Positions 8,640-24,353 of a DNA stretch of 32,000 bases are shown piece after piece (within the stretch, counting starts at the first letter, position 1; the number at the start of each line of letters is the position of its first letter). The notes under the pieces are model-generated. The model was not told where the DNA came from and ran no database searches. It worked only from the letters and a program-made list of their open reading frames with translations. Made by a program: the position numbers and the translations under genes. Source of the stretch: Edaphobacter aggregans (GTDB taxonomy: Bacteria > Acidobacteriota > Terriglobia > Terriglobales > Acidobacteriaceae); contig NZ_RSDW01000001.1 of the NCBI RefSeq assembly GCF_003945235.1, positions 2,760,001 through 2,792,000 of the forward strand. The letters are read 5' to 3'.

Positions 8640-11318
8640 ATGCGTCTGCTAAGTCGACTCTGGGCATTAACCCGCCGTTCCAGCATAGATCGTGACATCG
8701 AAGAAGAGATGCAGGCCCACATGGCCATGCGCACCGAAGACAACATCGCCGCCGGAATGTCCGAAGAGAACGCCCGCCGCGACGCCCGCCTCCGCTTCGG
8801 CAACCCCGTCGCAGCAAAGGAGCACGTCGAAGGCATAGACCTCGCACTAGGCGTCGAATCGCTATGGCGCGATATCCGCTACGCCATCCGCGGCTACCGC
8901 AAAAGCCCTCTCTTCGCAGCCGTCGCCATCATCACGCTCGCGCTCGGCATCGGTGCAAACACGGCAATCTTTCAATTGCTCGACGCAGTACGCCTGCGCA
9001 GCCTTCCCATTCAGCGCCCGCACGAATTAGTAGACCTTCGCATCGTCGGCGGCAACCAGGGCTTCGGCGTCTCCGACTCCCAGTACTCGCAACTCACTCG
9101 CCCTCTCTGGCAGGAAATTCAACGCCATCACGACCCTCTCTCCGGCGTCTTCGCCTGGCGCACCAATCAGCAGATACTCGGCTCCATCAGCGATGGCCGC
9201 CGCATTCAAACCATCAACGTCACTGGCGACTTCTTCAGCGTCCTCGGCATTCAACCCTTGCAGGGAAGACTAATCGGCCCCGAAGATGAAGCAGCCGCCT
9301 GCACCGCGCCACGCGGCGTTGTCAGCTACCCTTACTGGCAGTCCCAGATGGGCGGTCGCCCCATCACTCCAGGCACCACCATCCTGATCGACAACCTGCA
9401 AGCCGAGATCATCGGCGTCGCACCACCCGAATTCTTCGGCCTTGCCGTAGGCGAGAGCTTCGATATGGCATTTCCCCTCTGCACACCCCGGACCATCTCA
9501 CGCGAATTCTTCGACGTCTCCGTCATGGGTCGCCTGAAACCAGACTGGACCCTCGACCGCGCCTCTGCCTACTTCGGCTCCATCAGCAAAGGAATGTTTG
9601 AAGCGGCGTTGCCCACGGGATACAGCTCGAAATCTACCGAGCAATTCAAAAACTTCCGCCTCGGCGCATACTCCGCATCGTCAGGCGTCAGCAACCTGCG
9701 GCAGGACTACGACAAATCTCTCTGGATCCTTCTCGCCATCACTGGCCTTGTGCTTCTCATCGCCTGCGCCAACCTGGCCAACCTCATGCTCGCTCGAGCC
9801 AGCAGCCGTCAGCGCGAAGTCGCAGTCTGCATGGCTCTCGGAGCCTCCCGAGGCCGCGTGCTGCGTCAACTTCTCATCGAAAGCAGCCTCCTCGCAGTCA
9901 CCGGAGCCGTACTCGGAATCGCCCTCGCCCAGGCCTTCAGCCGCGTCCTGCTCTTGGCCTTCGCCAACGGGAAAGATTCGATTCACCTCTCCATCGAAAC
10001 CGACTGGCGAGTCCTTCTCTTTGCCGCAACCGTGGCATCGCTCACCTGCGCCATCTTCGGAACTCTCCCGGCGTTCCGCATGTCCAAATCCGACCCCATT
10101 ACCGCACTGAAGACCGGCGACGGCCGAACCTCTGGCAGTCGCGAACGCTTCTCCGTGCAGCGTCTCATGGTCGTCACTCAAATCTCCGTCTCCATGGTCC
10201 TCCTCGTCGGCGCGCTCTTGTTCGTCCGCAGCTTTCGTAACCTCATGACTCTCAACCCCGGCATGCGCGAAAGCGGCATCACCGTCGGAACCTTCGGCTT
10301 CCCCCTATCCCATGTCGACCCCGCACACTACGAAGAGTTCAAGCGCCGCCTGTTGAATGAGGTCCACTCCGTACCAGGAGTCACCAACGCCACAACGACG
10401 ACCATGATCCCCTTGCTGGGAGGCAGTTGGGGACACCGAGTCAACGTCGGCTCCATGGAAGGCCCGTCGCAATTCACTTGGGTGAGTCCCGGTTACTTTC
10501 AGACCTTCGACATTCCCCTCATCGCCGGACGCAGCTTCAACGAGAACGACACCGACACATCGCCCCACGTAGCCATCGTCAATCAAACCTTCGTCCGCAC
10601 CTATCTCAACGATGTAAACCCCATCGGACAAACGCTACGCACCCAGGCCGAGCCGAAATATCCGTCCACGCTCTTCGAGATCGTCGGCGTAGTCCACGAC
10701 ACCAAGTACAACGAACTCCGCGGCGACACGCCCCCCATGGCCTTCGCCCCCGCAACCCAGTTCCCCCTCACCGCGCAAGGGCCATGGACCGTAGTGATCA
10801 TCGCCTCGAACCTCCCTTCCGCCACGATCACTGAAGCCATCAAGCGCAAAATCGGAGACACACACCCCGAGATACGCGTGAACTTTTTCGACTTCCAGCA
10901 GAGCATTCACGACAGGCTCCTTCGCGAACGCCTCATGGCGATCCTCTCCAGCTTCTTCGGCGCTCTAGCCGCCCTGCTCGTCATGGTCGGACTCTACGGC
11001 ATCATCTCCTACCTCGTCACCCGTCGCCGCAACGAGATCGGCATCCGCATAGCCCTCGGCGCCACACGCAGCCAGATTATCGGCCTGGTCATGCGCGACG
11101 CGGCCAGCATGTTGGCGATCGGCGCACTCATCGGCACGACATTGTCGCTGCTCGCAGGTCGCGGAGCAGGCTCCATCCTCTTCGGACTAAAGCCCTACGA
11201 CCCGGCAACACTCGCCTTCGCCGCAGCCTTCCTCGCCGTCATCGCGGCACTAGCCAGCTTCCTCCCGGCCTTCCGAGCGGCGCAGCTCAATCCAACAACA
11301 GCACTGCGTTGCGAATAA
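8640..11318 (+). CDS. ADOP-family duplicated FtsX/MacB-like permease
   Basis: 892 aa. The N-terminal 'permease prefix' reads IDRDIEEEMQAHMAMR...ARLRFGN. Two MacB-like periplasmic domains are each followed by an FtsX 4-TM module (..ACANLANLMLARAS.RQREVAVCMALGASR.. and ..RRRNEIGIRIALGATRSQI..). Pairing with PadR is typical of Acidobacteriota. Confidence 0.9.
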   Translation: MRLLSRLWALTRRSSIDRDIEEEMQAHMAMRTEDNIAAGMSEENARRDARLRFGNPVAAKEHVEGIDLALGVESLWRDIRYAIRGYRKSPLFAAVAIITLALGIGANTAIFQLLDAVRLRSLPIQRPHELVDLRIVGGNQGFGVSDSQYSQLTRPLWQEIQRHHDPLSGVFAWRTNQQILGSISDGRRIQTINVTGDFFSVLGIQPLQGRLIGPEDEAAACTAPRGVVSYPYWQSQMGGRPITPGTTILIDNLQAEIIGVAPPEFFGLAVGESFDMAFPLCTPRTISREFFDVSVMGRLKPDWTLDRASAYFGSISKGMFEAALPTGYSSKSTEQFKNFRLGAYSASSGVSNLRQDYDKSLWILLAITGLVLLIACANLANLMLARASSRQREVAVCMALGASRGRVLRQLLIESSLLAVTGAVLGIALAQAFSRVLLLAFANGKDSIHLSIETDWRVLLFAATVASLTCAIFGTLPAFRMSKSDPITALKTGDGRTSGSRERFSVQRLMVVTQISVSMVLLVGALLFVRSFRNLMTLNPGMRESGITVGTFGFPLSHVDPAHYEEFKRRLLNEVHSVPGVTNATTTTMIPLLGGSWGHRVNVGSMEGPSQFTWVSPGYFQTFDIPLIAGRSFNENDTDTSPHVAIVNQTFVRTYLNDVNPIGQTLRTQAEPKYPSTLFEIVGVVHDTKYNELRGDTPPMAFAPATQFPLTAQGPWTVVIIASNLPSATITEAIKRKIGDTHPEIRVNFFDFQQSIHDRLLRERLMAILSSFFGALAALLVMVGLYGIISYLVTRRRNEIGIRIALGATRSQIIGLVMRDAASMLAIGALIGTTLSLLAGRGAGSILFGLKPYDPATLAFAAAFLAVIAALASFLPAFRAAQLNPTTALRCE

Positions 11319-16200: not shown

Positions 16201-16283
16201 CCATCGCACTCAATCCGCAAACCTAGACCAGACCGACTCGACCCTCGTCTAACAAAGCAGCCTCGTCTGGAGTTTGCCTTTTG

Positions 16284-17105
16284 ATGAACTGTTCGTCTCG
16301 GAAATACCCCTCGGCCTCTCTTACTTTCACCGCGTTCAGACGAGCCGTTCTCGCCCTCTCGCTCGCCGCATCGCCCCTCGCAGCCAGCGCCCAGAACGCC
16401 GTCATCAAAGTTCCCCCGATAAAGATCCCTCTCGACGTCAAGGGCCAGCCCATCACCATCACCGCCTCGGCCATCCTGACCGTCTCGACGAAGAACCGTA
16501 CCCTCACGACCCTCCATCTCCAACTCACCGGCGATCTGTCCGATCTCCAGGCCAACCTGACCTCACTCCTCAGCTCCCAGCTCGACAAGGATGACCGCTG
16601 CGGCGACCGCATCGCGATCCAGAACGCCACCCTGACTCCCACCGATCCCGCCAGCCAGGCCCTCGTTCAGCTTCACGTCGAACGCTGGGTCTGCATCAAA
16701 GCCCTCGGCAAGCAGGTAACCAGGCGCCTCATCAACGGCGACGCCCAGCTCCCCATCACACTCACCCCCGCCATCGACGAAGACGGCACCAGTCTCCGGC
16801 TCGTCCCCGAAGTCGGCGAGATCCAGGCCGACGGCTCCCTCGGCGAACTACTCCGCTCCGGTCTGCTCGGCGACACCATCCGCGAAAAGGTCCACAACAC
16901 GATCCTCTCCGCCCTGCAGAAGGGCACAGACCTCAACGCAACCCTTCCTCCAGCGGTACAGGGTTACGTCACCATCCAGAACGCCCAGTTCAAGGATGCC
17001 GGCGACGGTCGTCTCCTCGTAGTCCTCGACGGCGAAGCCCGCATCACTCAGGACCAGATACGTCTTCTCTCCGAACAAGTGAAAGAGCGCACCGCCTCGC
17101 GCTGA
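16284..17105 (+). CDS. Secreted hypothetical protein, family not recognised
   Basis: 273-aa ORF (ATG at 16284, one codon inside the TTG-started track ORF). Signal-like leader LALSLAASPLAASAQNA. Codon usage matches the neighbours. I recognise no motif. Confidence 0.6.
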   Translation: MNCSSRKYPSASLTFTAFRRAVLALSLAASPLAASAQNAVIKVPPIKIPLDVKGQPITITASAILTVSTKNRTLTTLHLQLTGDLSDLQANLTSLLSSQLDKDDRCGDRIAIQNATLTPTDPASQALVQLHVERWVCIKALGKQVTRRLINGDAQLPITLTPAIDEDGTSLRLVPEVGEIQADGSLGELLRSGLLGDTIREKVHNTILSALQKGTDLNATLPPAVQGYVTIQNAQFKDAGDGRLLVVLDGEARITQDQIRLLSEQVKERTASR

Positions 17106-18339: not shown

Positions 18340-18657
18340 CTACTCGCTTCCCTTTGCTGCCGACAACATCTCCGTCAGGATCTCTTCGGTCGCGCTCGCC
18401 AACGCAACGCTGGTTCCATCCGCCGACTTGATCGTAACCTGGGGAGCATCGGATCTTTTTGCCAGCTTCGCCTTGAGTTCGAGCAAAGCGCTGATCAGCT
18501 TCACCGTACCCGCCGCAAGCGCCAGAATCGTTACCGGATCCATGCGGGCGTTTTTCCATCGAGTCACCTCGACAGAAGAGAGGTTCGTTTCGACTTCCTT
18601 CACGATCGCCTCATCGCGCGAATCGATCCGAAGTTCCAGCTGCGCTTCGTCGGCCAT
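18340..18657 (-). CDS. Small partner protein of the CHAT protease, EACC1-like with a hydrophobic core helix
   Basis: 105-aa ORF from ATG 18657, with a perfect GGAGG 5 nt upstream. It starts 20 nt after the CHAT gene stop (18678). The layout is an acidic N-terminus (ADEAQLELRIDSRDE), the hydrophobic segment MDPVTILALAAGTVKLISALLEL, then the basic KAKLAKR and QVTIKSADGTSVALAS. Confidence 0.7.
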   Translation of the reverse strand: MADEAQLELRIDSRDEAIVKEVETNLSSVEVTRWKNARMDPVTILALAAGTVKLISALLELKAKLAKRSDAPQVTIKSADGTSVALASATEEILTEMLSAAKGSE

Positions 18658-18677
18658 TTTTTCCTCCACACAAAAAC

Positions 18678-21302
18678 CTAAGGAATTCCCATGTATCCGA
18701 ATGCGGCGAAGTCTTCGATCCCCTGGTCCGCCCGCATCTCGCGTTGCACCTCTGCAACATAGCGCAGAGGCTTCGAACCCTTTCCAGCCACTACCTTCTC
18801 ATAAAATCGAGACATAAAGGCCGCCGCTACCTCATCGTACACAGGCCAGCGGCTGCCGATCACGCACCGCGCACCCGCACGGAGCAAGCTGCCTGTCAGC
18901 CCGTGACAGTTATTTTGCGGACTGAGCGACATCAACGCAGTCGAGCACGCCGACATCGTAACCACAGGGTTATTGTGAAATTTCACGGTGCTCATAATAT
19001 CGCCCGCAGTGACCCGTTGGCTGTCGCTTTGCACGTCGGGCACAAAATGCAAAGCCGCATTCAGCGGCGACTCCGCATCATACGTTCCGTGACACACAAA
19101 ATGAATGTATTCGTAATCCTGCCGGAGCTGATCGAGCACGGAAAGCTTGTTGCAGTCGGCGCCCGATAAAAGCACCATCCGTTCGCCGAACAGAGTATGG
19201 AGAACCTCGACCTCCCGCGCCGCATTGGTCAGGTCGTCGCCCTGATAACCAACGACCAGCAACCTACCGCCTCTCTTGGCTTTGTTTATTTTGGTGAGAT
19301 CGTAGCCGAGCCTCAGGGACGGCACGTACGCAACCTCATAGCGATCGAGCAGAAAGCTATCGGCCTTCGGCTCATCTATCAATGCTTCAAACGCAATGCG
19401 AGTCAACCCACCTGGCAGGCAGAAAACAATTCGCTTAACGTCCCACCTCTGCAGCGTGGGTTCGATCGCCTTGAAAAATGCCTCGTACCCCACGGTATGG
19501 ATGCGTTTCAGGTTACGTTCGCGGAAGGGGCCGGGGCTAATCAGATCCACGCTCCATGCAATCGAGTCATCCCCCGCAGGCCATGTAGCGACTTCGATAT
19601 CAGGCTCCTTCGAATCGGAAGGACCGCAAATAAACGCGATCATCTCCGGTTTCTCATTTCTCTCATAAGGCTTGTACATATAGCTGATACACGCAGTTGA
19701 GATTTTGTCGCGCCTTAGATATTCGAGTAGACCCAAAACAACTGGCGCAATCGGCTCGGGCGTTTGCTGAGAGTCAGACTCGTCAAAAAATTCTTGACCT
19801 AAGTCCCGAGCCAGAATCGATACGGCCTCCTTCTCCAACCGCTCTTGGTCCGTATCATCCATGGTGTGTAGCCGCACCGTCGCGGCACGCAGAGTTTCGG
19901 CTGCCGCCAGCGCTTCGAGCGGCTGGTCTGCTTCGACGTAAGCGCGGGCCAGATTGTCGAATAGCACCAGCATGCGTTCAGACCGTTGCTGGAGGATCCA
20001 CTCCTCAGAATTCTGGCGAATTTGCAGCAGCGCAAAAGAAGCGCCTCCCTGCAACGCAACCAGTTCATGGTTTTTTGCGCCTAGCTTACGTGCGATGGTC
20101 GCCAATTGCACAAAACGTCCCCATTGGAAGCTCCGGGCGATCCGCTTCTCGTCCGCAGAGATTGAGGCGATCAAATCTTGTTCCGCCTGCAGCAGTTGCT
20201 CCTGCGTGGGGTCGTCGAGCATCGCAATCGTCTCACCACGCGATTGCATCACCCCAATCAAAAGATAGTCGGGTAGTTCAAATCCAAGTGCCTTTTCAAA
20301 CTGCTCGAGGGCTTCACGGATCTGTGCCTGGTCCGCGTTGCCGATGCGAAGCAGATCACCAACGAGATGATGCGTTCGACCTACTTGGAAGCGCGCTGTG
20401 AGGATTCTCTTATCGTCCGGCTCGGCCGGATTGCGCGGTGGTTCGGAAGCCAGTTGCTTCTCATATTCCGCCAGTACCCTCCGCGCAAGGGCAATGCCCT
20501 CCTCGCGAATCCTGGGCCGTCCCAGGGCCTCCGCTGCTTCGTCTTCCGGACATTGCGTCAGAATGCTGTAAATCAGCATCGCGCAGTTGTGTTCTATCGC
20601 AGCGCGGGTAAAAGCATCAAAGGCAAGTTCGGCGGCCTGTTCTTGGAGGGTAAGTGCTCTGGCCGCAGCCGCAAAATCTCCAGTCGTACGGAAGTAATCT
20701 TTCAGCAGCTGCCCTTGCAAGGAGACAAGCCAGCAGAATTCTTCGAGGTTCTCGTACCCATCGCTTGAACAGAGCGTGCTGCAGAACAGCACCTCGCAAA
20801 GAATGTGCAGGTGCGAGTCCGGGAACAGCTGTACAGCCCATGCCACCTCTTCATTAATTTGCTCGCCATCCTTCAGCGGATTCACGCCCCAAAGTTCTTC
20901 CTGGTCTGTCCCAAGGAGCGATAGACCAGCCTTACCGAAACGCTTCGGATACGGCGGCGAGATCGTTATACCTTTCAGGTTGATACGATGCGAGCCGCAT
21001 TGACCACACTTCAAATCGAGCCACGGAGCGGTGACTGTATCCGATAAGTCGTGCCCACAGTCCAGACACTCCCCCTCAACCTGCTCCCAATGCCGAATTA
21101 CGGCTCTCTTCTTCGATCCGCAATTGCGGCAAGGTGTAGCCAGGGCTGACTTCGAAGAAGTCCAACGCGCCGGGTTCGCGCGATCTTCCCAACCGCATTG
21201 ACTACAAGCAACGTAAATCTGGGCATTTGCGGATAACAGCGGAAGAACACGTTCCTGACGGAACGCAACCGGTAACTGGAAGAACATTTGATCGCGAGGC
21301 AT
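18678..21302 (-). CDS. Zinc-ribbon / helical-repeat / CHAT-domain (caspase-like) protease
   Basis: 874 aa. C-terminal CHAT signature: YIHFVCHGTYD (His738, codon 19089-19091), VVTMSACSTAL (Cys786, codon 18945-18947), then GLTGSLLRAGARCVIGSRWPVYDEVAAAFMSRFY. The N-terminus carries two CxxC...CxxC zinc ribbons (C33/36/58/61 and C79/82/99/102). The middle ~400 aa are helix-rich and TPR-like. Confidence 0.88.
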   Translation of the reverse strand: MPRDQMFFQLPVAFRQERVLPLLSANAQIYVACSQCGWEDRANPARWTSSKSALATPCRNCGSKKRAVIRHWEQVEGECLDCGHDLSDTVTAPWLDLKCGQCGSHRINLKGITISPPYPKRFGKAGLSLLGTDQEELWGVNPLKDGEQINEEVAWAVQLFPDSHLHILCEVLFCSTLCSSDGYENLEEFCWLVSLQGQLLKDYFRTTGDFAAAARALTLQEQAAELAFDAFTRAAIEHNCAMLIYSILTQCPEDEAAEALGRPRIREEGIALARRVLAEYEKQLASEPPRNPAEPDDKRILTARFQVGRTHHLVGDLLRIGNADQAQIREALEQFEKALGFELPDYLLIGVMQSRGETIAMLDDPTQEQLLQAEQDLIASISADEKRIARSFQWGRFVQLATIARKLGAKNHELVALQGGASFALLQIRQNSEEWILQQRSERMLVLFDNLARAYVEADQPLEALAAAETLRAATVRLHTMDDTDQERLEKEAVSILARDLGQEFFDESDSQQTPEPIAPVVLGLLEYLRRDKISTACISYMYKPYERNEKPEMIAFICGPSDSKEPDIEVATWPAGDDSIAWSVDLISPGPFRERNLKRIHTVGYEAFFKAIEPTLQRWDVKRIVFCLPGGLTRIAFEALIDEPKADSFLLDRYEVAYVPSLRLGYDLTKINKAKRGGRLLVVGYQGDDLTNAAREVEVLHTLFGERMVLLSGADCNKLSVLDQLRQDYEYIHFVCHGTYDAESPLNAALHFVPDVQSDSQRVTAGDIMSTVKFHNNPVVTMSACSTALMSLSPQNNCHGLTGSLLRAGARCVIGSRWPVYDEVAAAFMSRFYEKVVAGKGSKPLRYVAEVQREMRADQGIEDFAAFGYMGIP

Positions 21303-21493
21303 GCAATCGTCCTTTTGATTCCGCTATCGTCCCGGCTCTCGGGAATAGTAGCCGAATCAAAGCAGTTTCTGCTAGCGGTGAAAACGTAGTCTTCGTCTTT
21401 GTCGCCATCCCAACCCTGGGGCCCCGACCGGAAAGAATCCCCGCATTTCGCTTCTACCGCCTAACCACACCCCAGAAGCAGCTTTTGTTTTTC

Positions 21494-21711
21494 CTGCCAT
21501 CCCCGCAGGGAAATGCTGTTGTCATTGTCGCTGCTGTTGCTGTTGCTGTTGTATTTGCAGTTGCAGTTGCTTTTCTTGCTTGTCATCCCCGAAGGGGACC
21601 TGCTGTTGTCGTTGCTGTTGTCGTTGCTGTTGCTGTTGCTGTTGCCTTTTGGTTGTCATCCCGCAGGGATCTGCTGTTGTATTTGCTGTTGTATTTGCAT
21701 TTGCCCTTGCC
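21494..21711. repeat. Tandem array of three GYCATCCC-hairpin units, each followed by a (GCTGTT)n-like microsatellite
   Basis: Units start near 21494 (CTGCCATCCCCGCAGGGAAATGCTGTTG), 21580 (TTGTCATCCCCGAAGGGGACCTGCTGTTG) and 21653 (TTGTCATCCCGCAGGGATCTGCTGTTG). Each is followed by 40-60 nt of GTTGCT/GTATTT low-complexity repeats. Confidence 0.85.
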
Positions 21712-21786
21712 TCAAGGTACCCCAAGGCTTCAGCCTTGGGTCTCTTTCGCCACGAGCAAAAGGGGCTTTAGCCCCTGGGGTATGCC
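21712..21786. repeat. Twin-hairpin repeat module
   Basis: CCCAAGGCTTCAGCCTTGGG (8-bp stem) and GGGGCTTTAGCCCC (5-bp stem), separated by TCTCTTTCGCCACGAGCAAAA. I recall this motif as an acidobacterial interspersed element, but that is not verified. Confidence 0.55.
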
Positions 21787-22012
21787 TTCTGTATTTTCGC
21801 TTTACGCTGCCGTTGTTCTTCTCTACACCGCTGCAATCGGGCCATCAAAAAAAGTCCAAAAAAGTGCCGATTTTCCATCGTCGAAAAAGCAGCCACCCGC
21901 TGACCACAATTCACCACGAAGCTTCCACACTAGCCACACTTTTTACCACGTTCTGGCACACGAATTCGCCAAAACCTCAGCAAAAATGCCACTCCACCAC
22001 GTCGAAAAAACG

Positions 22013-23596
22013 CTACAAAATGTACCGCGAAAGATCCTGGTCCTTCACAATCGAAGCCACCTGCTGCTTCACATACTCCGGATCGACCACGATCACCTTC
22101 TCCACACCCGTAGCCGTCTGCCGCTCAATCACCGGCAGCGGAGGCGAAGGCTTCTGCGGCTCTCCCGTCAGCGAAGCCGACACCGGAACCTCAGCAACCA
22201 CGCCCTCTTCCGTCACCTCGGCCCGCGGACTCTTGAACAGATCCGGTGCCTGGAAGCTGATCTCATCCAGCACCCGTTCCAGAATCGTATGCAGCCTTCT
22301 AGCCCCAATGTTTTCAGTGGTTTCGTTCACCCGGAAAGCAAACTGCGCCATCTCCGCAATCGCCTCCTTCGTGAACTCCAGCTTCAACCCCTCCGTCTCC
22401 AGAAGCGCCGTAGACTGCTTCACCAGCGAAGACTTAGGCTCTGTCAAAATCCGTACAAAGTCATTCACCGTAAGTGATTGCAATTCAACACGAATCGGGA
22501 ACCGCCCCTGCAACTCCGGAATCAAATCCGAGGGCTTCGAAACATGAAAAGCCCCGGCCGCAATGAACAAAATATGATCGGTCGAAACCATCCCATACTT
22601 CGTATTAACCGTAGTCCCCTCAACAATCGGCAAAATATCCCGCTGCACACCTTCTCGCGAAACATCCGGCCCATGACCACCCTCACGCCCGGCAATCTTG
22701 TCGATCTCATCGAGAAAAACCATCCCCGAATCCTCAACCCGCTCCACCGCCAAACGCGTCACCTGATCCATATCGATCAGCCGATTTTCCTCTTCCTGCA
22801 CCAAATAATCGAACGCCTCAACAACCTTCATCTTCCGCTTCTTCGTGCGCTGGCCAAACAATCCCGGCAACATATCCTTCAGGTTGATGTCCATCTCTTC
22901 CGTGCCCTGATTCGTAATCACCTCAAAGCTCGGCGTATTACGATCCCGCACATCCAACTCAACAACGCGCTCATCCAGCTTGCCCTCGCGAAACTGCTGT
23001 CGCAGCTTCTCCCGAGTCCGCTGCTCGCGATCACCCGGCTTCTCTTCGCCGCTATCCACAGCTGTAGCCGCAGGCAGTTGAATCACGTTGCTCCCCGGCT
23101 CATGCGTCGCCGCAGCCGCAGTGACAGCAGCAGGCGTAGGAGGCAGCAGCAGATCAATCAGACGGTCTTCGGCCGCCATTTCCGCCTTGTCCTCGACATC
23201 CTCCATCTTCTCTTCGCGAACCATGTCGATCGCAATCTCCACCAGATCGCGCACAATCGACTCGACATCGCGGCCAACATACCCTACCTCAGTAAACTTC
23301 GAGGCCTCGACCTTCAAAAACGGCGAATTCGTCAGCTTAGCCAGCCGCCGCGCAATCTCTGTCTTACCCACGCCCGTCGGCCCGATCATGATGATGTTCT
23401 TCGGCATGATCTCGTCTGCCAACTCAGGCGAAAGCTTCTGCCGTCGCATCCGGTTGCGAAGCGCAATCGCCACGGCCCGCTTCGCCGCATGCTGCCCTAC
23501 AACGTACTTATCCAACTCCGCGACGATCTCGCGCGGCGTCATCTCATCCAGCGCCAACGCCTGATCGTCAGCCGTTCCCGGTAAAAAAATAGCCAT
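22013..23596 (-). CDS. hslU: ATP-dependent protease ATPase subunit HslU
   Basis: 527 aa. [31 protein letters not shown], Walker [24 protein letters not shown], and the C-terminal DLSRYIL. It is longer than the 443-aa E. coli HslU I recall, because of insertions in the I-domain and near the C-terminus. Confidence 0.95.
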
Positions 23597-23656: not shown

Positions 23657-24301
23657 TTACGGGTTCGCAGGTTCTGCCTTCAACTCTTCAATCGTCATCT
23701 GATCATTCGTATAGATACAAATCTGTCCAGCGATCTTTAGACTCTTCTCCGCGATCTCACGCGCGCTCAAATTCGTATTCTCCATCAGAGCCCGCGCACT
23801 AGCCAGTGCATAGCTACCGCCTGAGCCAATCGTCGCAATCCCCTCATCCGGATCGATCACATCACCAGTACCTGACAGCAGAAACGTCTGCTTCGCATCA
23901 GTCACAATCAGCAGAGCCTCAAGCTGACGCAGCATCTTATCCGTCCGCCAGTCCTTGGCCAACTCCACCGCAGCGCGCCCCAGATTCCCGGCATACTGCT
24001 CCAGCTTCGTCTCAAACCGCGCAAACAGACTGAAAGCATCCGCCGTCGATCCAGCGAAACCCGCCAACACTTTGTCGTTATAGAGCTTGCGAATCTTCTT
24101 CGCCGACCCCTTCATCACCGTGGCGCCAATCGACACCTGCCCATCGGCAGCCATCACCACCGAGTCCCCCCGGCGCACGCAGATCACAGTAGTTGAACGA
24201 ATCCGCCGCCCCTCACCCAGATCCAGAGGATGCGCGAGATTCAGCAGAGAAGACTTATTTGGGCGAACAGACGGCTTGGTAGAGGAAGAAAGACGAGACA
24301 T
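23657..24301 (-). CDS. hslV: ATP-dependent protease subunit HslV with a 36-residue N-terminal leader
   Basis: HslV core [21 protein letters not shown]...GSGG.YA is present. The start is taken at ATG 24301 (GAGGAG 5 nt upstream). The conserved catalytic Thr-Thr occupies codons 24193-24188, i.e. residues 37-38 rather than 2-3. Confidence 0.9.
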
Positions 24302-24353
24302 TGGCACTCCTCAGTATATCGCCAACTCCTCGCATCCCTCGCCTAACGTCAAT

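Follow-up and report, generated by a model that had tools for sequence, protein, structure and literature searches.

A zinc-ribbon/TPR-like/CHAT protease and a small EACC1-like protein encoded as a conserved gene pair in Edaphobacter aggregans: a candidate protease-gated cell-death module

What is the role of a CHAT protease gene that is followed, after a gap of only 20 nucleotides, by a gene for a small hypothetical protein? The question is raised by two adjacent genes in a 32,000-nucleotide stretch of the Edaphobacter aggregans genome (contig NZ_RSDW01000001.1, positions 2,760,001 to 2,792,000; hereafter the window, meaning the whole stretch analysed). The first gene encodes an 874-aa protein ending in a CHAT caspase-like protease domain and the second a 105-aa protein (Table 1). 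An earlier note, made from the sequence alone, had read the pair as a protease with a substrate or adaptor, the small protein resembling EACC1. Kaur et al. 2020 (PMC7159879) had predicted EACC1 as the constant component that accompanies proteins with a caspase domain. Following up this proposal, we find that the two genes form a conserved pair, and we consider it fairly probable that the pair works as an EACC1-type module for cell death under protease control. The spacing and coordinates of the small open reading frame (ORF), 20 nt past the stop codon of the CHAT gene and behind a GGAGG ribosome-binding site, were verified as first described. A mechanical ORF list starts it at an upstream GTG (109 aa); we adopted the ATG at 18657 (105 aa) because the homologues begin at the ATG position. 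No terminator-like site lies within the spacer, and Rfam and promoter scans of the CHAT/small-gene locus returned nothing meaningful.

The association between the two genes extends well beyond this genome. A hidden Markov model (HMM) scan of the retrieved loci placed the small gene directly downstream in 8 of the 9 distinct loci encoding a full-length zinc-ribbon/TPR-like/CHAT protein (TPR, tetratricopeptide repeat), in keeping with the coupling envisaged by the earlier note. The eight linked loci are those of the window (equivalent to L008, L009, L010 and L015), L003, L004/L017, L016, L007, L011/L012, L013 and L014, with linkage in distant family members being sampled from contigs that encode small-protein relatives. 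Their hosts comprise Acidobacteriota, Actinomycetota and metagenomes. Eight close full-length homologues of the large protein share 42-99% identity with it, and full-length zinc-ribbon/helical/CHAT relatives at 27% identity sit directly upstream of the small gene in L013, a low-GC metagenome contig, and L014, from Dactylosporangium sp. CA-233914. The two proteins have thus diverged together, with identity across the linked loci falling to 27% for the CHAT protein and to about 30% for the small protein. None of the CHAT-only relatives carries the small gene; a scan of genome contigs with the CHAT protein found only distant relatives of this kind (L001 and L002), a plasmid tblastn search found CHAT-domain matches only, and a metagenome scan with the homologue alignment (A6) added a single full-length locus, L016. 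In L011 (2381-4983) the orthologous protease is split into two ORFs with a 4-nt overlap, one zinc-ribbon/helical (378 aa) and one CHAT (489 aa), and the small gene still lies downstream. The split reflects either a natural version with two subunits or a frameshift.

An ORF of this size could nevertheless be a chance ORF or an unrelated gene, whose adjacency to the CHAT gene would be functionally meaningless. High-GC DNA yields many spurious ORFs, several of which overlap the CHAT gene on the opposite strand, and the small protein has no above-threshold family assignment. Against this, 11 close homologues of the small protein were found, and its family profile retrieves 97 representatives (clusters at 50% identity) at E<1e-3, 48 of them at E<1e-10, nearly all of which are about 100 aa long. 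The dN/dS ratio (nonsynonymous to synonymous substitutions) of the small gene against its orthologues is 0.12-0.31, at saturated synonymous sites, which indicates that the gene is under purifying selection. An AlphaFold2 (AF2) model built on an 81-sequence alignment has a pLDDT (predicted local distance difference test score) of 90.3. Taken with the adjacency to the same CHAT family kept across phyla, conservation and dN/dS exclude a chance ORF, to which we assign a negligible probability. The model consists of β1 (residues 4-12), α1 (16-25), β2 (30-33), a loop (34-42), β3 (43-50), α2 (51-66), β4 (73-77), β5 (83-85) and α3 (91-103), and Foldseek relates it only to generic ferredoxin/ACT-like folds (E>0.009); there is no significant match in the PDB by fold or by sequence, and PADLOC and NCBIfam return nothing for the small protein. 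On inspection by eye, two family members depart from the usual form: P0062 joins an unrelated N-terminal segment to the C-terminal half only of the small protein, and P0046, at 236 aa, has a 130-aa extension at its N-terminus. These may be disrupted or fused variants.

The large protein combines a CHAT protease domain with a putative sensor region. Pfam CHAT (PF12770) matches with E=5.2e-43 and 148 bits, against a cut-off of 24, so that the CHAT assignment made in the earlier note holds, as does its intact dyad: His738 and Cys786 are invariant among 8 full-length homologues (alignment A6), and equivalent HxxCHG and SACS motifs are found in L013 and L014. The zinc ribbons and helical repeats described there are also present, as judged from the cysteine positions and the helical region of an AF2 model of the 874-aa protein (pLDDT 74.8, predicted template-modelling score (pTM) 0.72). 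In this model, a beta-rich zinc-ribbon head (29-124) leads into an all-helical solenoid (142-530), which a small beta module (536-575) separates from the CHAT fold (592-872). Both CxxC...CxxC zinc ribbons are conserved in the homologue alignment, while Pfam zinc-ribbon/HypA matches to the N-terminal region are weak, and this double zinc ribbon may form a sensor or interaction head. The solenoid has no Pfam TPR match, and by Foldseek it resembles the TPR part of Csx29 as well as the CTPR, LGN, SPY and OGT TPR proteins. For the large protein taken as a whole, the best Foldseek match in the PDB is TPR-CHAT Csx29 of the type III-E Craspase (E=2.7e-14). Below it rank separase (E about 1e-11 to 1e-8), DdvA, which is a CHAT anti-sigma factor, and a range of generic TPR proteins. 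PDB sequence searches gave nothing useful, and NCBIfam and PADLOC gave only weak CHAT-domain echoes (BovA, Csx29).

For the small protein, the closest described relative is probably EACC1. In canonical EACC1 systems, the EACC1 gene comes first (5') and the 3' gene encodes a protein with an N-terminal caspase domain followed by variable C-terminal domains, and EACC1 itself was described as having one conserved hydrophobic helix with a patch of small residues (PMC7159879). The earlier note knew of no experimental work on this class, a statement that no longer stands, as EACC1 has been characterised in a preprint of November 2025 (Evans et al. 2025, bioRxiv 10.1101/2025.11.14.688446). In that study, the caspase-like domain of KrAvs12 cuts EACC1, toxicity is confined to the EACC1 C-terminal fragment with the N-terminal fragment being autoinhibitory, and cleaved EACC1 permeabilises liposomes.

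Several comparisons point to a remote connection of the small family to this protein. EACC1 is the only Pfam family that recurs, matching 6 of the 12 close members and, among 81 distant ones, 10. The lowest E-value is 4.2e-5, the best individual score among two batches of ten members is 19.7 bits, and the matches always fall on model positions of about 45-104. A Pfam scan of the window protein at E<=10 returned EACC1 and RMI1_C only, with the EACC1 model covering aa 44-96. The reference protein KrEACC1 (WP_007905045.1, sequence taken from the supplement of Evans et al. 2025) is matched over model region 44-104, in the same register as the small family, and scores just 28.2 bits, so that even a verified EACC1 is poorly captured by the Pfam model. 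The small-family HMM matches KrEACC1 directly (15 bits, E=7e-6 for 8 targets), and hhalign aligns the 81-member family (A2) with the KrEACC1 family over 67 columns (P=1.4e-4, with a probability of 52%). The conserved-helix/small-residue segment PVTILALAAGTVKLISALL, which includes LALAAGTV, fits the EACC1 descriptor of Kaur et al. 2020 (PMC7159879), and the maximum Kyte-Doolittle hydropathy over a 19-residue window is 1.87 for the small protein and 1.71 for KrEACC1. Based on these alignments, we regard the small protein as a probable, though not proven, divergent branch of the EACC1 superfamily.

The same alignment points to where such a protein might be cut. It superposes R38-M-D40/PVTIL of the window protein on R46-T-Q-D49/WGTIL of KrEACC1, the slash following the aspartate in each, and the motif R-x(0-2)-D-x-x-T-[IV]-L is common to the small family and KrEACC1. 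Arg38 is the only invariant residue of the small family (81 of 81 representatives), Asp40 is present in 64 of the 81, and the loop from R38 to D40 has the lowest pLDDT inside the small-protein model. Separase cuts after Arg, and by analogy the invariant Arg38 could be the P1 residue here as well. For D49, the mapped cleavage site of KrEACC1, the masses calculated for the two products of a cut after it (5.73 and 7.17 kDa) match the reported 5.7 and 7.1 kDa, and a cut at the aligned position would leave a 65-aa C-terminal fragment in both proteins.

Taking these features together with the published behaviour of EACC1, we propose a model in which the first gene would encode a latent Csx29/separase-like TPR-CHAT cysteine protease, held inactive by its double zinc ribbon and TPR-like solenoid until a trigger, presumably an infection- or stress-derived macromolecule, binds. 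The second gene, translated from its own GGAGG, would supply an autoinhibited 105-aa alpha+beta protein. Once activated, the CHAT domain would use His738 and Cys786 to cut the exposed Arg38-Asp40 loop, removing a 40-aa N-terminal beta-alpha-beta cap and freeing the 65-aa C-terminal fragment. This fragment, headed by the hydrophobic small-residue segment, would oligomerise into membrane pores that kill or arrest the cell in the logic of abortive infection, and the role of the module would probably be antiviral. Of the two parts that the earlier note had offered the small protein, cleaved effector is more likely than adaptor, because in the characterised system a caspase-like protease cuts EACC1 into a membrane-permeabilising fragment; the notion of a protease paired with a dedicated partner gains from the conserved linkage, while the adaptor role has become less likely in light of Evans et al. 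2025.

Table 1. Features of the CHAT/small-gene locus and the adjoining hslVU genes, in window coordinates.
Feature	Position	Strand	Details
CHAT protease gene	18678..21302	minus	874 aa; WP_125485394.1, annotated 'CHAT domain-containing protein'
Small EACC1-like protein gene	18340..18657	minus	105 aa; WP_125485393.1, annotated 'hypothetical protein'
Intercistronic spacer	18658..18677	minus	20 nt, GTTTTTGTGTGGAGGAAAAA; directly after the TAG stop of the CHAT gene
GGAGG ribosome-binding site	18663-18667	minus	5 nt 5' of the small-gene ATG (18657)
Zinc-ribbon head, beta-rich	20931..21218	minus	aa 29-124; C33/C36/C58/C61 and C79/C82/C99/C102
All-helical TPR-like solenoid	19713..20879	minus	aa 142-530; AF2 secondary structure
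CHAT caspase-like protease domain	18717..19484	minus	aa 607-862; Pfam match
Catalytic His738 in HFVCHG	codon 19089-19091	minus	sequence motif
Catalytic Cys786 in MSACST	codon 18945-18947	minus	sequence motif
Arg38-Met39-Asp40 codons, candidate cleavage site	18538..18546	minus	predicted exposed loop; conservation and AF2
Hydrophobic small-residue-rich segment	18460..18537	minus	aa 41-66, PVTILALAAGTVKLISALLELKAKLA; would head the 65-aa C-terminal fragment predicted to be toxic
hslU, AAA+ ATPase	22013-23596		directly upstream of the CHAT gene
hslV	23657-24307		beside hslU

A number of observations weigh against this model. With the protease gene first, the gene order is reversed relative to canonical EACC1 systems, and the protease domain is C-terminal rather than N-terminal. 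The domain belongs to the PF12770 CHAT type and follows a TPR-like solenoid, whereas KrAvs12 carries a short caspase-like domain, one that matches no Pfam protease model. The window small protein scores only 16.0 bits (E=0.012) with Pfam EACC1 (PF19953), below the gathering score of 23.6, so that its membership of the family is remote and not established. The resemblance drawn in the earlier note still proved a useful pointer, given the recurrent match and the aligned cleavage-site motif. The hhalign probability given above is low, and a shallow close-family profile (A1) finds nothing in the KrEACC1 family (P=0.22). Pro follows Asp40 in about half of the small family; most proteases tolerate Pro poorly at P1', which leaves it uncertain exactly which bond would be cut. 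One orthologue of the large protein, P0014 (62% identity; L005/L006), has no small gene, its last CHAT-gene codons being overlapped by a convergent gene with a CHAT-like C-terminus (L005 5637-5759; L006 3363-3779). As for the genomic setting, relatives of the small protein were found neither in plasmids nor in viral contigs, the neighbours of the module in the window (hslVU, an acyltransferase and a transaldolase) are housekeeping genes, and PADLOC reports nothing convincing beside four related loci. A defence island, for which the earlier note had proposed to look, is seen neither there nor at the window locus.

Weighing these points requires a comparison with the EACC1-caspase systems as a whole ('System 4' of Kaur et al. 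2020, represented by KrEACC1-KrAvs12). In both, an alpha+beta protein some 105-115 aa long, whose middle holds a hydrophobic segment rich in small residues, is encoded beside a Peptidase_CD-clan cysteine protease fused to a variable sensor. On the other hand, the putative sensor here is a double zinc ribbon with TPR-like repeats, whereas EACC1 systems use a STAND NTPase, a diversity-generating retroelement (DGR) target, DnaK or EccC, and the hosts of the window-type module include Acidobacteriota, unlike those of the EACC1-caspase system. What is described here is a probable EACC1-type module with a different protease scaffold, a reversed gene order and a putative zinc-ribbon sensor, and the proposed mechanism has already been described for EACC1.

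The structural neighbours of the large protein suggest a different assignment for its partner: the small protein may regulate the protease, acting as an adaptor, as a pseudosubstrate inhibitor in the manner of securin or as a signalling substrate in that of Csx30. The true targets would then be other proteins of the cell or of an invader. In separase-securin, as here, a helical solenoid and a CHAT-like caspase fold are combined with a small partner protein, and securin keeps separase inactive. That system serves the eukaryotic cell cycle, however, its inhibitor securin is unstructured, and no sequence similarity was detected. Csx29 of the type III-E Craspase shares the order of a TPR solenoid followed by a CHAT protease and, once activated, cuts a protein encoded nearby, Csx30, a regulator of a sigma factor rather than a pore former. 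The existence of P0014 without the small gene, which implies that the protease may act alone, and the sub-threshold EACC1 homology would also fit a regulator. Speaking against it, conservation in the small protein lies in its hydrophobic C-terminal half, the counterpart of the toxic EACC1 fragment; KrEACC1 has the same motif at its cleavage site, and the C-terminal fragment would be equally long (65 aa) in both; and a hydropathy peak of 1.87 is what membrane-active segments typically show. We therefore regard a purely regulatory small protein as unlikely and favour the cleaved effector.

The resemblance to Craspase can be taken further, to a view of the large protein as a free-standing, CRISPR-independent Craspase-like sensor protease whose zinc ribbons bind nucleic acid or protein of an invader. 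Its partner would then be only convergently EACC1-like, belonging to a distinct and as yet unnamed class of membrane toxins released by a protease or of securin-like regulators, and the family of about 100 clusters would represent a new defence or cell-death system instead of a branch of EACC1. To this we give a low probability. Compared with Csx29/Csx30, the window protease has an additional N-terminal double zinc ribbon, and its partner is an EACC1-like protein of 105 aa. Neither Cas7-11/gRAMP nor a CRISPR array nor Csx30 was found nearby, in the window or within +/-10 kb in L008. As candidates in their own right, Csx29 was rejected for the large protein (NCBIfam NF041237, 27.4 bits against a cut-off of 300, the similarity being one of fold only) and Csx30 was rejected for the small protein, which gave no match to it.

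Two further systems invite comparison with the EACC1-type module that we favour. Operons of bacterial gasdermins with caspase-like or CHAT proteases follow a shared logic, in which an adjacent protease removes the inhibitory segment of a pore former. The window partner differs in its length of 105 aa and its ferredoxin-like alpha+beta fold, and its predicted inhibitory piece is N-terminal, whereas that of gasdermin is C-terminal; gasdermin was rejected as an identity for the small protein, there being no gasdermin match in Pfam or PADLOC. The CATRA/CATASP ternary system (Burroughs & Aravind 2020) likewise combines a caspase-type protease with TPR repeats and a small protein. No third conserved gene stands beside the window pair, however, and in Pfam the small protein matches only EACC1 and RMI1_C; with no such match, CATASP was set aside as its identity, although this comparison is incomplete.

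A protease-licensed pore need not be directed at phage. In bacteria that aggregate or grow as filaments, the same proteolytic mechanism may instead be used for kin control or for cell death in response to stress or during development. The named hosts, Edaphobacter aggregans and a Dactylosporangium, are compatible with such a role, and in the five contexts inspected the module has no defence genes at its flanks. Kaur et al. 2020 (PMC7159879) found a strong association between EACC1 systems and a multicellular lifestyle, and EACC1-DnaK fusions suggest stress sensing (10.1101/2025.11.14.688446). Yet KrEACC1-KrAvs12, the only EACC1 module tested experimentally, is triggered by a phage tail-connector protein (10.1101/2025.11.14.688446), and the patchy distribution of the module, its variable flanks and its absence from the hslU junction in a relative are typical of defence cassettes. 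A purpose unrelated to phage therefore appears improbable to us, and an antiviral role remains the one we tentatively prefer.

The flanks bear directly on this point. Flanking genes differ in every locus. L023 comes from a close relative (HslU at least 90% identical), and its gene order agrees with that of the window as far as hslU, but the module is missing. In a comparison of L023 8001-11279 with window 21303-23596, L023 retains the order of OsmC, cation-efflux, adh_short, GH79, hslV and hslU genes; beyond hslU, it continues with a D-Ala-D-Ala ligase and aromatic amino-acid genes, where the window has the CHAT module, the acyltransferase and the transaldolase. By this comparison the module sits at a synteny breakpoint. 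The varied flanks and the absence at the hslU junction indicate that the pair is an accessory, mobile two-gene unit, and that the conserved housekeeping synteny which the earlier note had held against a defence role does not apply. Base composition is consistent with a more recent acquisition of the CHAT gene, which has a GC content of 0.554 and a GC skew of -0.087, the skew being much weaker and the GC content lower than in its neighbours; over the whole window (1-32000) C outnumbers G by 11901 to 6828, a skew of about -0.27, with genes in both orientations.

The earlier note had also remarked that none of the usual CHAT partners is encoded nearby. This is borne out for cas, cyclase, SAVED/CARF and gasdermin genes, none of which was called within +/-10 kb in the near-identical contig L008, but an AAA+ gene does lie directly upstream. 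Its pairing with hslV identifies this gene, hslU, as part of the HslUV housekeeping protease; it encodes neither a STAND nor a defence NTPase.

If the proposed mechanism is correct, protease-licensed EACC1 pores would extend to a Csx29/separase-like TPR-CHAT scaffold, would gain a new sensor head in the double zinc ribbon, and would reach the Acidobacteriota. To our knowledge, this abundant soil phylum has almost no characterised immune systems. The small family, about 100 clusters at 50% identity in which every annotated member that we checked is a 'hypothetical protein', is missed by the Pfam EACC1 threshold, by PADLOC and by NCBIfam, and censuses of defence systems therefore under-count it. 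The loop around the invariant Arg38 offers an immediately testable cleavage site, and the compact cassette a simple model for the activation of a TPR-CHAT protease without a CRISPR effector.

Other features of the window deserve brief mention. The 710-bp gap between the CHAT gene and hslU (21303-22012) contains tandem repeats of 6 and 12 nt, of the (CAACAG)n type, at 21514-21698 (7 pattern matches against 0.02 expected), interspersed with the short GC-rich hairpins CCCTGCGGG, CCCCTTCGGGG and CCCAAGGCTGAAGCCTTGGG. The gap has an RNA fold z-score of -2.1 and no Rfam match, and a 416-aa plus-strand ORF that runs across it looks spurious. This gap could serve the module as a regulatory sequence or 5' leader; alternatively, the repeats could be an element marking an insertion junction. 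Between the transaldolase and acyltransferase genes, a 274-aa ORF (16281-17105, plus strand) with an apparent signal peptide is conserved in L008 and L009; its Pfam matches are not meaningful (Borealin, E=0.0015, presumably spurious). Finally, the window (8640-11318, plus strand; from the annotation of L008) and the 62%-identity locus L003 (14298-17358) each encode, within a few kb of the module, a MacB_PCD/FtsX permease of about 900 aa next to a PadR regulator. This could reflect residual synteny or coincidence, as Acidobacteria have many such paralogues.

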